Shown here piece after piece: positions 23,525-32,158 of a stretch of DNA of 44,101 bases. Source of the stretch: Kagunavirus BCH953P1; sequence record OZ035805.1, one strand, 5' to 3'. The notes below the pieces were generated by a model. The model ran no database searches. It was not told the DNA's origin and worked only from the letters and a program-made list of their open reading frames with translations. Within the stretch, counting starts at the first letter, position 1. Every line of letters starts with the position of its first letter. The translations under genes and the position numbers were made by a program.

Positions 23525-23754
23525 TTAGAAATTCTCCATACAGTCGGTACTAGAGCCAAGAAACGTCCAAGTCGTGTTTTATTCTTACATTGTATTAAAT
23601 CCCAGTTAATAAACTTTATTTTTGCGGTATTTTCGGCTGTCGCGCCTGGGTCAGAAGACCATAATACCGCCGCTTTTTCTCTGTGATTCGCTATGTACAC
23701 ACCACCGCTGCCGTCTATTGATACTTCTTTGGCCAAATGTTGTTTAATCTTCAT
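23521..23754 (-). CDS. hypothetical protein
   Basis: 77 aa; start overlaps helicase stop. Confidence 0.5.
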   Translation of the reverse strand: MKIKQHLAKEVSIDGSGGVYIANHREKAAVLWSSDPGATAENTAKIKFINWDLIQCKNKTRLGRFLALVPTVWRISK

Positions 23755-25175
23755 TTCTTACCTCGTCTCTTCATGTAATTAAGCAATTCTTCCTGGACCG
23801 ATTTCTTCTCGTCCGTACGCGCGGCAACAACCTCATCCAGCGTGTCTTTAGCGACGATATGATAGAGGAACACCGGGCGCTCGTGGCCCGCCTGCTTCTG
23901 TCGTACTGGACCTATACGCTCGACAACCTGCAAATAGTGCTCAAGGTTCCAGCCTTGCGAAATAAACGCCAGATGATGGCCGCCGTCCTGTAAATTCAAA
24001 CCATGACCGGCTGACGCAGGGTGAACGCATAAGATTTCGATTTCCCCACGGTTCCACGCTTCCATCTGCTTATTACCCTTAGCACCTTTTGCGAACGCCT
24101 GCGCCTGCGGGAATCGCTTAAGGATGCGCTCAAGTTCGTGCTTGAACTGATAGGCGACCAGCAACGGCGCTCCCTGTAACTCCTCGACAATCGACTCCAG
24201 CGCATCAAGTTTCGTGTCGTGCACTTTCTCCCAGTCTTTGGTTGCTTCGCCATCCGGTCCTGATACATACACGGCACCGGATGCAATCTGCAGACACTTC
24301 GACGTCTTCGCTGCGGCGTTAGCCGCTTCAACTTCCCCGCTCTCCAGTTCTGCGAATAGCTTCTCCTCCATATCTATGTACGCCTGGCGCGCTTTCTTAG
24401 GCAGGTCTATTTCAACCGGTACAATAATTGGCGCTTCGCATCCAAACCACTCGGCAGCGTCAATCGTGAGACTAATGTCCTTCATCTTCTGGTGAATTTC
24501 ATTATCCGCACCCGGGCGGGCGTGGTACTCACGCGCCATCACCGACTTACCTTTCTGTACCGAGTTAAACCATCGGTCGGTGAACGCGGTGTATGAAGAA
24601 CCAAGTCGCTCGCCAGCGTCGATAAACCAGTTCTGCCCCCACAAGTCCTTGAGGCCGTTTGGCGACGGTGTACCGGTCAGGTTAATGAAGCGCTTAACCT
24701 TTCCAAATGCCACTTTGCTGAGCGCCTTAGCCCGCTTGCTCCCACCAGAACGGCTACGGAATGATTTCAGTTTCGTGCTTTCATCAGCAACGATAACCGT
24801 AAAAGGCCAGTCGTCTTTGCCGTAGTAGTCAATTAGCCACTCGATAACTTCGTAGTTAGTACACACCACGTTAGCGTCCGACTCCAGCGCCGCGATGCGG
24901 CGCTTCTCTGAACCGGTCGCATCGACGACACGTAGACAAGGGAAGTTCCATTTCTCTTGTTCTGCAGGCCATGTACCTGACGCAACACGTAAGGGGGCGA
25001 GGATTAACACACGGTCGTCGTCCGTAAGTTGCCCATTACGAAACAGGCGGTTTAGCACCCACATAGTAGAGGAGGTTTTACCCCCTCCCATGCCGCACCA
25101 GATATTACAGCGCGGATGTTGTAGCATGAACGAAGTCATGAGCTTCTGGTACTCTCGACGGATAAATTTAGACAT
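23751..25175 (-). CDS. SNF2/DEAD-like superfamily 2 helicase
   Basis: Walker A GMGGGKTS, DEST box (VIVADESTKLK), C-terminal helicase region; first ATG sits 2 nt after the methyltransferase stop (the longer ORF would overlap it). Confidence 0.8.
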   Translation of the reverse strand: MSKFIRREYQKLMTSFMLQHPRCNIWCGMGGGKTSSTMWVLNRLFRNGQLTDDDRVLILAPLRVASGTWPAEQEKWNFPCLRVVDATGSEKRRIAALESDANVVCTNYEVIEWLIDYYGKDDWPFTVIVADESTKLKSFRSRSGGSKRAKALSKVAFGKVKRFINLTGTPSPNGLKDLWGQNWFIDAGERLGSSYTAFTDRWFNSVQKGKSVMAREYHARPGADNEIHQKMKDISLTIDAAEWFGCEAPIIVPVEIDLPKKARQAYIDMEEKLFAELESGEVEAANAAAKTSKCLQIASGAVYVSGPDGEATKDWEKVHDTKLDALESIVEELQGAPLLVAYQFKHELERILKRFPQAQAFAKGAKGNKQMEAWNRGEIEILCVHPASAGHGLNLQDGGHHLAFISQGWNLEHYLQVVERIGPVRQKQAGHERPVFLYHIVAKDTLDEVVAARTDEKKSVQEELLNYMKRRGKK

Positions 25176-25851
25176 GATTAGCCCCGTAAACTGCTTTTGC
25201 GAAACCACGCGGAGTAAGGCTGCGGATTGTTTTTGTTCTGGCGCTCTTTCCGCCGAGTTTAGCCCAACCAGGGTTATCTCCACTACCCACGGCAACCTCG
25301 GCAACGTCGGGCATAACAAACCCATTTCCGGCCCACAGGCACGTCTTTTTAACATATGCATCTCGCGCCGGGATAACATCCGGGAACATTGGATGTGTGT
25401 CGTCTTCGGGTAAATAGCCGCCGTATTCGTACGGATTGAACGCGTAGTCAGGCTTACGCCATAAAGACGAAAGAACGCTAACCGGGTTCTCAATCATATA
25501 CGGTACGTTGTACTTTTTAGCCAGACGCGCAGCCACTTTGCATGTAATCACGGCCTCTACCTGAAACGTTGGGTTCCTTCTCCGCTTCGTTTCGAAATGG
25601 GCCGCGCCGCTAACGGCTAAATCTGTGCATGGGGGGAACGCGAAAATAATATCCGGCGCAACGTCGAAGTCGAATTTATTATCAATCCACGCGTTTATAT
25701 AGTGGATGTTCTCGTGTTCAACTTTTGCGCCCAATCGTGCATAGTCTCCGCGGTCGGCGCCATCGTAGTTGAAACAATAGCAAGTATGGCCTGCTTCCGC
25801 CCACGGCTGGGCCATAAGGCCCGAACCGTCAAACAATGACCAGACAATCAT
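25168..25851 (-). CDS. DNA methyltransferase-like (C5-cytosine type motifs), short
   Basis: 227 aa; LFDGSG (FxGxG), FPPCTD (PC motif) and IENP (ENV-like) in canonical order; unusually short. Confidence 0.5.
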   Translation of the reverse strand: MIVWSLFDGSGLMAQPWAEAGHTCYCFNYDGADRGDYARLGAKVEHENIHYINAWIDNKFDFDVAPDIIFAFPPCTDLAVSGAAHFETKRRRNPTFQVEAVITCKVAARLAKKYNVPYMIENPVSVLSSLWRKPDYAFNPYEYGGYLPEDDTHPMFPDVIPARDAYVKKTCLWAGNGFVMPDVAEVAVGSGDNPGWAKLGGKSARTKTIRSLTPRGFAKAVYGANHV

Positions 25852-26039
25852 TTCGCCACCAGAACTAGCTCTTTACGTCCGAACGCCGTAACGTTACCCG
25901 TTACATCTTCGATAACCAGTTTACCGTTCGACTCGACGAACACCGTATCAACGGCAACAGGACGACGTGTCTTAACGTTGAAAATCATGTCGCCTGGTAC
26001 GATGTCACGTGCTGGTTTGCGGTCATATTCGTGTTTCAT
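25848..26039 (-). CDS. small protein, paralog family A (SH3-like)
   Basis: 63 aa; DIVPGDMIF...VFV pattern shared with ORFs at 41269 and 41588. Confidence 0.5.
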   Translation of the reverse strand: MKHEYDRKPARDIVPGDMIFNVKTRRPVAVDTVFVESNGKLVIEDVTGNVTAFGRKELVLVAK

Positions 26040-30160: not shown

Positions 30161-31398
30161 TCTAAATCCTCCTCTGTTACCTGATTCCACTCAGGCCGTT
30201 TGTCGTCTGCCGCGGCGACGCATGGCGCTCCCGGCTTGCGGGTAATGAAGTCTTTCAGTTCTTCTTCTGGTATTACTTTAACCGCTTCGGTAGGCGTCAT
30301 GAGCACTTCTTTAGTCAGCTTGTCGCCGTAGAGTTCTGCAACTTTCTCGGCGTCTTTCCACGCACGATTACCCGGCCGACCTTCAACCAGTTTGTACCCC
30401 GGCACTTTCTTACCGGAATGCAACGCGGCAGCCATAGCTTTCTCAACCTTGTCGATGTGCTGGCGCAACAACGGCAGCTTCTCATACTCGGCGACGAGTT
30501 GCTCTGGCGTCAATTCCAGCGCAAAGTCGTCCTCAAGTTCTTCCGCCAGTACCGCGTTAACGGTTTTTGTACGCGCGGCGCACTGTTCGGAGAACCGACA
30601 CCACTGGCAACCATCTACTGACGGCTTGAAGTCCGACGCTTTCAGGTTCTTCTTGCCACGGAAATACGCATCAAGAGCTAACAGCGCACGTTTCTGTGCA
30701 AACTTAGCGAACAGTTCCAGACCTTCAACCGAGATGCCCCACTCTGACGCACCGCCAGCATACGGCTGGAAGATGACAAGACGAACAACTGTGATGTTAT
30801 ATCGTCTCTTGAGTCGACGATAAACACCGAGAGCGTAGAGCATAAGCTGCTTGTTTTCTTTCGCTTCGACACGATGTCGCCCTGTTTTCAGGTCGCCGAT
30901 AATTAGCATATGCTCGTCGGTGTTCGCCAGTTCCTGTACGGCAACAAGGTCGGCGGTTCCGAACGTCTCGACACCTTCATAACCCGGATGCAACACCTCA
31001 GTAAGATTGACACGCATTTCCAGCTTGGCGTAAGTAGCGACGTCAATAATCGCCTTACAGTAGTCGGTGTACTTTCGCACCTGCTCAATCATGTCAGCCG
31101 TAATCAGCACCGCGCCTTTCATCGGGCTGATTAGCGCCTTAATCTGGCCTTTACCCTCATCCAGCACGTAAGCACCGACTTCGCGCTCTAACGGCAGTGC
31201 AGTGCCTTTTATGTACTGGTTTAAATGTACCTCAGCTATGGTGTGGCACGCTGTCCCCGTAACGGCGGATTTACCCGACGTGTTAGGAATATCTTTTTCA
31301 CAGGCCAGTGATGCAGCGCATGACAGCCATTTTTTAGCACCTGACGGTGACAACAGCGCGTGCACATCGTTATTGCCCCTGCGTTCTTTTAATTTCAT
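30157..31398 (-). CDS. DUF2800-like PD-(D/E)XK-type nuclease
   Basis: 413 aa; N-terminal HALLSPSGAKKWLSC pattern; genomic association with DUF2815-like and polymerase genes. Confidence 0.65.
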   Translation of the reverse strand: MKLKERRGNNDVHALLSPSGAKKWLSCAASLACEKDIPNTSGKSAVTGTACHTIAEVHLNQYIKGTALPLEREVGAYVLDEGKGQIKALISPMKGAVLITADMIEQVRKYTDYCKAIIDVATYAKLEMRVNLTEVLHPGYEGVETFGTADLVAVQELANTDEHMLIIGDLKTGRHRVEAKENKQLMLYALGVYRRLKRRYNITVVRLVIFQPYAGGASEWGISVEGLELFAKFAQKRALLALDAYFRGKKNLKASDFKPSVDGCQWCRFSEQCAARTKTVNAVLAEELEDDFALELTPEQLVAEYEKLPLLRQHIDKVEKAMAAALHSGKKVPGYKLVEGRPGNRAWKDAEKVAELYGDKLTKEVLMTPTEAVKVIPEEELKDFITRKPGAPCVAAADDKRPEWNQVTEEDLE

Positions 31399-31889
31399 CT
31401 TTTAACCCCATGATTTTTGTGGAACCCGTAAATCTCTTCTGCTTTCTTTCTAACGTTTACCGCATCGTCGAAGCTGTCGAAGTATCCTAAATGCTTCAAT
31501 ACCTTGTTTATTTTTATACTTGCCCGCCATCTACCGCGCCTACGGCACCATGAAACTCCGGTCACACCTGACGTATTTAGCGACGACATTCCAGAATTAC
31601 GCCGGTTTCCTAGACTGTCAACTTTACGAAGATTAGATATGCGATTATTCCTTCTGTCATGGTCTATATGGTCAATCTGGTCGCCGCTACTTAAAACATC
31701 ATTAGGATTACAAAGTTCCCATATAACACGGTGCACTTTATAGACCTTACCTAACACTTGTACCTGTTTATAGCCGTGAACATCATTCGACCCCGCCTCT
31801 TGGCCTACCTTTACCTTATCCGAAGGGCTTATCTTCCAAAATAATTTACCGGTATCAGGGTCATAGTCAAAAACTTCATGCCAATTCAT
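31395..31889 (-). CDS. HNH endonuclease with AP2-like domain (homing endonuclease-like)
   Basis: HNH-like DHIDHDRRNNRISNLR and AP2-like GVTGVSW...RWRASI segments; first ATG with GGGAG SD (the longer ORF starts with TTG). Confidence 0.65.
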   Translation of the reverse strand: MNWHEVFDYDPDTGKLFWKISPSDKVKVGQEAGSNDVHGYKQVQVLGKVYKVHRVIWELCNPNDVLSSGDQIDHIDHDRRNNRISNLRKVDSLGNRRNSGMSSLNTSGVTGVSWCRRRGRWRASIKINKVLKHLGYFDSFDDAVNVRKKAEEIYGFHKNHGVKR

Positions 31890-32158
31890 ACTCTGTTCTC
31901 CCACTGGTCGATTAAATGTCTGGTCCGGTGATGACAATGCATAGCCCAGCCATACATCGACTCGAAGACATAAAAGTCAGGCTTGGCGAATGTCGTGCGC
32001 TTAATCTGCGACAAGTGACGGCCTATATCTTTAGGCCGTGGCACTTTGCCTAAGTACGCCATCTCTTCCATCTGGTGCGCACCGGATGGCGCACGCAATA
32101 GCCATAGCGCCTCTGTGCTATCCCGCCGGTCTACGGCTCGGTAGAGTTGGTAAATCAT
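31886..32158 (-). CDS. hypothetical protein
   Basis: 90 aa; stop overlaps HNH start. Confidence 0.45.
   Translation of the reverse strand: MIYQLYRAVDRRDSTEALWLLRAPSGAHQMEEMAYLGKVPRPKDIGRHLSQIKRTTFAKPDFYVFESMYGWAMHCHHRTRHLIDQWENRV

Follow-up and report, generated by a model that had tools for sequence, protein, structure and literature searches.

The gene considered here belongs to the phage Kagunavirus BCH953P1 and occupies positions 25168-25851, on the minus strand, of sequence record OZ035805.1, where it encodes a protein of 227 amino acids (aa); the whole stretch of 44,101 nucleotides (nt) that was analysed is referred to below as the window. The gene very probably specifies an active orphan DNA cytosine-5 methyltransferase that is dependent upon S-adenosylmethionine (AdoMet) and belongs to the compact PHROG 757 family of phage proteins. 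The fold, the conservation of the motifs and the homology to a characterised enzyme are established here, and the activity of the Kagunavirus protein itself is what we infer. The catalytic large domain of the cytosine-5 (C5) methyltransferases is kept, with an FDGSG loop, Cys75, Glu121, the pair Lys168/Lys169 on the penultimate strand and a closing C-terminal helix, and the target-recognition domain (TRD) is almost wholly lacking. Since related genomes already bear an annotation for the gene and one of its homologues has been characterised, it is known and its identification adds no discovery.

The biochemical evidence comes from phage K42, whose identity to the BASEL phage Bas06 (KarlJaspers) is 95.4% (10.1101/2023.08.16.553469). 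The corresponding Bas06 gene, bas06_0055 (711 bp), was located by megablast with the phage aaroes gene and is annotated as a 'Dcm-like C5 cytosine methyltransferase'; the Kagunavirus protein is 60% identical to its product from end to end (E 2e-103). In K42, four of four escapers of retron Ec86 had lost or silenced the 711-bp dcm gene, the expression of which was toxic only with the retron present and raised the level of 5-methylcytosine (5mC) in the multicopy single-stranded DNA (msDNA) of Ec86, as seen in vivo by liquid chromatography coupled to mass spectrometry (LC-MS) (10.1101/2023.08.16.553469). The C82A/E128A/K175A/K176A form of the enzyme brought about neither the toxicity nor the increase in 5mC, and K175 and K176 were called substrate-binding by the authors after superposition of the protein on DNMT3A (10.1101/2023.08.16.553469). 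In a pairwise alignment these four residues are C75, E121, K168 and K169 of the Kagunavirus protein, and this correspondence, with the end-to-end identity, places the latter in a family with a characterised member. The earlier note on this DNA, made from the letters alone, had proposed a minimal methyltransferase without a restriction partner, a proposal supported both by the conservation of the motifs and by this 5mC-forming homologue.

The two proteins share their architecture as well, and both genes are orphans that sit in a replication module near a helicase gene. They differ in that the K42/Bas06 protein is 9 aa longer, through an insertion after motif III that the Kagunavirus protein is without, and in that the K42/Bas06 lineage is that of the Drexlerviridae (Hanrivervirus, T1-like coliphages) whereas Kagunavirus belongs to the Guernseyvirinae. 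Within the phage collection examined with K42, Dcm is encoded by 34 of the 35 Ec86-sensitive members (10.1101/2023.08.16.553469), and a later independent paper restates the retron-trigger result as established. Two other candidates for a characterised relative were set aside: P0097 has the K42 residue numbering and is a Salmonella-phage variant, not the K42/Bas06 protein, and the Dazbog methylase trigger concerns the canonical SPR enzyme, which is of a different family. The literature on methyltransferases of Kagunavirus, Guernseyvirinae, Jerseyvirus and Drexlerviridae yielded routine genome annotations only.

The open reading frame (ORF) is present as first described, running on the minus strand from an ATG at 25851-25849 to a TAA at 25170-25168, and the three motifs named in the earlier note, LFDGSG, FPPCTD and IENP, all stand where they had been placed, each having been checked against the DNA. 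Motif I (L6-F-D-G-S-G11; 25819-25836, minus strand, as are all the motif coordinates that follow) provides the presumed AdoMet-binding loop after strand 1 and lies in register with the FxGxG of HaeIII, DNMT3B, HhaI and Dcm. Motif IV (F72-P-P-C75-T-D77; 25621-25638, coding strand TTCCCCCCATGCACAGAT) carries the catalytic C75, its PC falling on the PC of the same four enzymes, and motif VI (I120-E121-N-P123; 25483-25494, coding strand ATTGAGAACCCG) is aligned to the ENV of HhaI and Dcm. The register of motifs I and IV is the same in all the alignments with canonical enzymes, and ENP is set on ENV in those with HhaI and Dcm. Both the Pro-Cys nucleophile (P74-C75) and the glutamate of motif VI (E121) are present.

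The C-terminal part of the protein is less conventional. The conserved stretch K168-K169-T-C-L-W173 (25333-25350), associated with a strand predicted at residues 170-175 in the AlphaFold2 model, is a candidate counterpart of motif VIII (QxRxR), the equivalence being taken from the superposition of the K42 protein on DNMT3A. The block R210-S-L-T-P-R-G-F-A-K-A-V221 (25189-25224) opens the last helix, which spans residues 215-225 in the model, and resembles motif IX (R.LTPRE); it may also stand in for the helix of motif X (GNxV), and none of the alignments resolves its register against the canonical motifs IX and X. Between the strand at 170-175 and the RSLTPRG block lie the residues 174-209 (25225-25332), a variable stretch of about 35 aa that is the sole occupant of the place of a TRD and has the lowest confidence in the model, the predicted local distance difference test score (pLDDT) averaging 54 over residues 191-200. 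The view that the protein is too short for a conventional TRD was thus correct. Strands 6 and 7 are separated by a conserved insert specific to the family, P140...Y166, which might take part in the binding of DNA.

This compact form is characteristic of a large family. At E<=1e-3 there are 7013 homologues after clustering at 90%, and at 50% identity there are 1225 clusters; a homologue is carried by 1527 phage records, which span the Guernseyvirinae, Drexlerviridae, Dhillonvirus, Vequintavirinae, Krischvirus (RB49) and others, and the Kagunavirus protein matches PHROG 757 over residues 1-226 with E 4.7e-85. With numbers of this kind the ORF cannot be a reading frame open by chance. The shortness that had seemed unusual is both real and typical, since nearly all members of the family are of 210-260 aa, as against 327 aa in M.HhaI and 472 aa in Escherichia coli Dcm. 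Longer members do occur: P0239 (348 aa) contains an HNH_2 endonuclease domain at residues 250-298 (E 5.9e-8), and in P0234 (453 aa) and P0247 (414 aa) the N-terminus is extended by about 175-200 aa that have no Pfam match. As a source of informative fusions, the Pfam scan of ten longer family members gave this one HNH_2 insertion only.

How far the catalytic apparatus is held constant can be gauged from 47 aligned members (alignment A2) that are 32-70% identical to the Kagunavirus protein. Around motif IV, P73 is found in 45, C75 in 46 and G82 in all of the 47; in motif VI, E121 is kept in 46, N122 in 42 and P123 in every member. The putative motif VIII is held almost as firmly, with K168 and W173 each in 46/47 and T170 in 44/47, and in the C-terminal block R210, P214, G216 and A220 each occur in 45/47. 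Motif I is looser, with F or Y at position 7 in 42/47, D8 in 39/47 and G11 in 37/47. The near-invariance of the cysteine, the glutamate and the lysine among distant members points to selection on the chemistry.

The AlphaFold2 model of the protein (pLDDT 85, predicted template modelling score 0.86) has the catalytic-domain fold of the C5-methyltransferases, which are class I AdoMet methyltransferases, its best Foldseek matches in the PDB being HaeIII (6.7e-5) and a chain of the DNMT3A2-DNMT3B3 complex. The resemblance to the DNMT3 enzymes is one of fold, with 12-14% identity to the catalytic domains of DNMT3A and DNMT3B (PDB 6u8p, 4u7t), and these domains differ from the phage protein in being of about 285 aa, in forming oligomers assisted by DNMT3L and in reading CpG through a TRD loop. 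With respect to M.HhaI and M.HaeIII, the PF00145 enzymes, the phage protein falls short of HhaI by 100 aa, is without the small (TRD) domain, has KK in place of RxR and possesses the additional P140...Y166 insert.

Several observations weigh against the assignment of the gene to an active C5-methyltransferase, and the first group of them comes from the sequence searches. The sole Pfam match, to PF00145 over residues 3-102, has E 0.0052 and 16.7 bits against a cut-off of 22, with three of the 47 diverse members matching this model at E<=0.01; nothing was matched in NCBIfam, nor in a phmmer search of the PDB with the single sequence. When the family profiles A1 and A2 were compared with the PDB sequences, HaeIII was found with E 0.47 and 0.02, respectively, and DNMT3B with about 0.6, and a match to KtrA (E 0.0019) was discarded as a spurious Rossmann match confined to the first strand-helix-strand. 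With hhalign the values were E 0.07 for an HhaI-subfamily profile and 0.08 for the single E. coli Dcm sequence, neither being significant; the HhaI profile is narrow because the 120 HhaI relatives listed for it are all more than 70% identical to HhaI. Alignment by hhalign to the single HhaI sequence was also non-significant, and motifs VIII-X were placed by none of these runs. The profile comparison with Dcm and M.HhaI that had been recommended as a check therefore brought motifs I, IV and VI into register without giving a significant E-value.

A second group concerns the motifs themselves. Only 7/47 members have the first glycine of FxGxG (G9), F-D-Y/F-T-G being the usual form, and the place of the canonical Arg-x-Arg is taken by the Lys-Lys pair. 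At the acidic position of motif II, Asp is found in 37/47 members and Asn28 in the Kagunavirus protein. This asparagine is typical of the Kagunavirus/T1-like subgroup, with Asp being found elsewhere, and these features of motifs I and II are unusual among C5-methyltransferases. Moreover, the experiments behind the assignment are those of a single preprint, in which a homologue of 60% identity was studied with a quadruple mutant and in-vivo LC-MS only.

The final adverse point relates to specificity. What does the enzyme recognise? For the K42 enzyme CCWGG was assumed by analogy with the host Dcm, and changing the CC of the CCTGG in the msDNA stem abolishes defence (10.1101/2023.08.16.553469). 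The K42 work was done in MG1655, where the control msDNA with its CCTGG site had little 5mC (10.1101/2023.08.16.553469). MG1655 is dcm+, so that the phage enzyme must do something that the host Dcm does not; the two behave differently and the claimed CCWGG specificity is accordingly unproven. The chemistry of the phage protein is that of E. coli Dcm and M.EcoRII, which act on CCWGG, and the name has been borrowed from them both by GenBank and by the K42 paper. There is, however, no specific relationship between the phage protein and E. coli Dcm (BLASTP E 0.43, in addition to the hhalign value given above), the latter having 472 aa, a complete TRD and a vsr gene linked to its own, none of which is shared by the phage protein. 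The name "Dcm-like" is thus no evidence for CCWGG.

The composition of the window can be set beside this. CCWGG occurs at 89 sites, a number equal to the mononucleotide expectation, and so is not depleted. GATC is present at only 7 sites against the 172 (mononucleotide) or 159 (Markov) expected, and the ORFs scanned did not include a gene of Dam type; the scarcity suggests strong selection against GATC-specific restriction or against processes linked to MutH/Dam. CTAG is found 17 times where 70 are expected, and a set of longer palindromes is also depleted, with observed and expected numbers of 0 and 9.4 for AAGCTT, 1 and 10.9 for CAGCTG, 2 and 9.9 for GGTACC, 3 and 12.9 for AGGCCT, and 2 and 8.2 for GGGCCC. 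Those avoided palindromes that contain C are presumably unprotected by methylation, and the composition of the genome thus speaks, though weakly, against promiscuity of the enzyme. Many of the phages that carry the methyltransferase gene were isolated on E. coli K-12 MG1655. This strain is McrBC-positive, and on such a host widespread methylation to purine-5mC would be expected to be penalised.

The gene is embedded in a tightly packed unit of the replication module. Downstream, and on the same minus strand, is an SNF2-type helicase gene (23751-25175; 474 aa; PF00176, E 1e-12), annotated as a DNA helicase in relatives, whose protein begins MSKFIRREYQ at an ATG at 25175-25173; this start is preceded, at a distance of a few nt, by a run of GGGG. 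The earlier note had put the methyltransferase stop 2 nt from the helicase start, and two bases do indeed separate the helicase ATG from the TAA, but the helicase ATG precedes the stop (ATG-TC-TAA), such that the genes overlap by 8 nt (ATGTCTAA; 25168-25175, minus strand, read directly). A longer helicase ORF of 580 aa, from a TTG at 25493, was rejected as a mere mechanical extension of the frame. Upstream, a 63-aa ORF to which no function is assigned (25848-26039, minus strand) has no Pfam match and corresponds to the hypothetical protein gp41 of phiWAO78-1; its TGA overlaps the methyltransferase ATG by 4 nt (ATGA). With overlaps of 4 and 8 nt, the 63-aa ORF, the methyltransferase and the helicase form a unit that is probably translationally coupled, and the helicase gene in particular is probably coupled to that of the methyltransferase.

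The suggestion that the gene is coupled to that for the helicase therefore holds at the level of the operon, and the same overlap is present in other Guernseyvirinae, but not all members of the family show the linkage. Dhillonvirus has the reverse order, with the helicase followed by the methyltransferase; in Hanrivervirus, including Bas06, two small genes intervene between methyltransferase and helicase; in Vequintavirus the methyltransferase is flanked by a hypothetical protein and an AAA ATPase; and in RB49 it stands among small early-type genes with no helicase close by. We read the proximity of the helicase as common membership of replication modules and not as an obligatory partnership, though the two may still be linked in function. 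A separate observation comes from the BFVD entry A0A6J5SE15_1, of an uncultured Caudovirales phage, in which a domain that resembles the short methyltransferase in structure (29% identity, template modelling score 0.65) lies within a 1397-aa protein called 'Helicase/UvrB, N-terminal'. The two activities may be fused in this protein, which would echo the gene overlap in Kagunavirus BCH953P1.

These observations on specificity and context allow a bolder reading, in which the family would comprise the smallest natural DNA C5-methyltransferases, of about 230 aa, essentially devoid of a TRD and not reading CCWGG at all, with the target being either a short or relaxed site or DNA that is handed over by the replication or helicase machinery, as at forks or hairpins. 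It would explain why the gene so persistently adjoins or overlaps SNF2 helicase genes, why a similar domain occurs in the 1397-aa helicase-annotated protein, and why the K42 enzyme methylates an msDNA hairpin that the host Dcm leaves largely unmethylated. For all this it is regarded as rather unlikely.

The same features could be taken to indicate a protein that is catalytically dead or repurposed and is kept for a role that is not enzymatic, for instance as a decoy or as an accessory to the SNF2 helicase that binds DNA. The lack of a TRD and of a significant match to the curated models, the degeneracy of motif I in much of the family, the overlap with the helicase gene and the presence of a similar domain within the 1397-aa BFVD protein would all be in keeping with such a role. 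Set against these are the near-invariance of the catalytic Cys, Glu and Lys among members of only 32-63% identity to the Kagunavirus protein and the enzymatic activity of the homologue, and for an accessory of the helicase there is the further difficulty that RB49 lacks the linkage and Dhillonvirus has it in the reverse order. That the protein is dead or repurposed is consequently very improbable.

It could also be asked whether the C5-methyltransferase fold serves here to transfer something other than a methyl group. In the phage enzyme CmoX (333 aa; PDB 8yf3), defined by SPPC and the carboxylate-binding R350, the donor is carboxy-S-adenosylmethionine (Cx-SAM), the target is GC and the gene is linked to cmoA and a ligase (PMC12783734). 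The Kagunavirus protein might likewise transfer a carboxymethyl group, from the Cx-SAM that is made by E. coli CmoA, or might perform the first step of a hypermodification pathway. Its likeness to CmoX is, however, matched by DNMT3B, HaeIII and HhaI, which score about equally well; it has FPPC (with F in 41/47 members) in contrast to the SPPC of the CmoX candidates, R215 being the residue that might take the position of R350; and neither cmoA, nor a ligase, nor any other modification gene was found among the replication-module ORFs scanned. As 5mC was clearly detected with the K42 homologue, and in dependence upon the catalytic residues, transfer of another group is given very little credence, and a hypermodification pathway, for which no partner enzyme was seen among the ORFs scanned, is rejected.

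Little more can be said for a substrate other than double-stranded phage DNA, whether RNA, in the manner of DNMT2 and its tRNA, or free nucleotides, or DNA in single-stranded or hairpin form. RNA and nucleotides have no positive support, and the alternative raised in the earlier note, of a cysteine enzyme acting on nucleotides or in some other way, found none either; such substrates are considered highly unlikely.

The idea that the gene is the modification half of a phage-borne restriction-modification or other defence system, although C5-methyltransferases are often partners in such systems, has next to no probability and is ruled out by the gene context, in which the neighbours are the SNF2 helicase, small ORFs, a VRR-NUC-type protein and PolA and in which there is no nuclease partner. 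The claim that no cognate restriction gene lies nearby was upheld: no restriction endonuclease or other base-modification enzyme was detected among the replication-module ORFs scanned, the neighbours of the methyltransferase contain no Pfam-detectable vsr-type or other nuclease domain, PADLOC gave no match for the methyltransferase, and the gene is an orphan in every phage context examined.

A cytosine methyltransferase is also what the gene is called in its relatives. The region is 99% identical to a second record of Kagunavirus BCH953P1, OZ035754.1, which is unannotated, and shares 87-90% identity with further genomes of Kagunavirus and the Guernseyvirinae. In records of Kagunavirus and Jerseyvirus the orthologues go by the name DNA cytosine methyltransferase, with this label being used in SZH-1, hz69, phiWAO78-1 (gp40), JSSK01 and RP180. 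The immediate neighbours are the SNF2-type helicase, three small ORFs without a Pfam match, one of which is annotated as a VRR-NUC protein in relatives, and a family A DNA polymerase (PolA); in the transcriptome of a related Kagunavirus the methyltransferase gene belongs to the same expression class as the DNA polymerase. Farther off are an Enc34-type single-stranded DNA-binding protein, a PD-(D/E)XK exonuclease, an HNH endonuclease and a primase-helicase-like AAA protein. The HNH endonuclease is a 180-aa ORF with an HNH_3 domain (31395-31937, minus strand; E 1.2e-11) that is located between the PD-(D/E)XK exonuclease and the next replication-module genes, and it is probably a homing endonuclease. 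On the opposite strand, an ORF of 172 aa (24895-25413, plus strand) runs antisense across the helicase/methyltransferase junction. It resembles gp39 of phiWAO78-1 (L001 7154-7423), a 'hypothetical protein' annotated in antisense inside the helicase gene of that phage, and in all likelihood it is spurious.

The course of events that these findings suggest for the C5-methyltransferase can be outlined as follows, the catalytic steps being those of the family as a whole. The enzyme would be co-transcribed with the replication genes and made together with the replication proteins. It is likely to bind AdoMet in the pocket formed by motifs I-III and to flip the target cytosine out of the DNA, following which Cys75 would attack C6, Glu121 would protonate N3, and the methyl group would be moved to C5 of cytosine in newly replicated phage DNA. 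Most likely, the benefit is that the progeny DNA would be shielded in the next host from restriction that is sensitive to cytosine methylation; no demonstration of self-protection against restriction was found in the literature for any family member. A cost is documented for the K42 homologue, in that retron Ec86 (Eco1) fires once its msDNA hairpin has become methylated, and the Kagunavirus enzyme may incur the same penalty.

Several consequences follow for the phage and its relatives. The gene is best annotated as an orphan phage DNA cytosine-5 methyltransferase (PHROG 757, K42/Bas06 type) and not as 'Dcm', a label that is unsuitable because there is no specific relationship to the E. coli enzyme. 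The virion DNA of this Kagunavirus should carry 5mC and the phage should be sensitive to retron Ec86/Eco1, both of which predictions are relevant to the choice of therapeutic phages or of production hosts. The family also raises the question of how a C5-methyltransferase without a recognisable TRD selects its target, and a compact enzyme whose specificity is short or unusual would be of use as an epigenetic tool.

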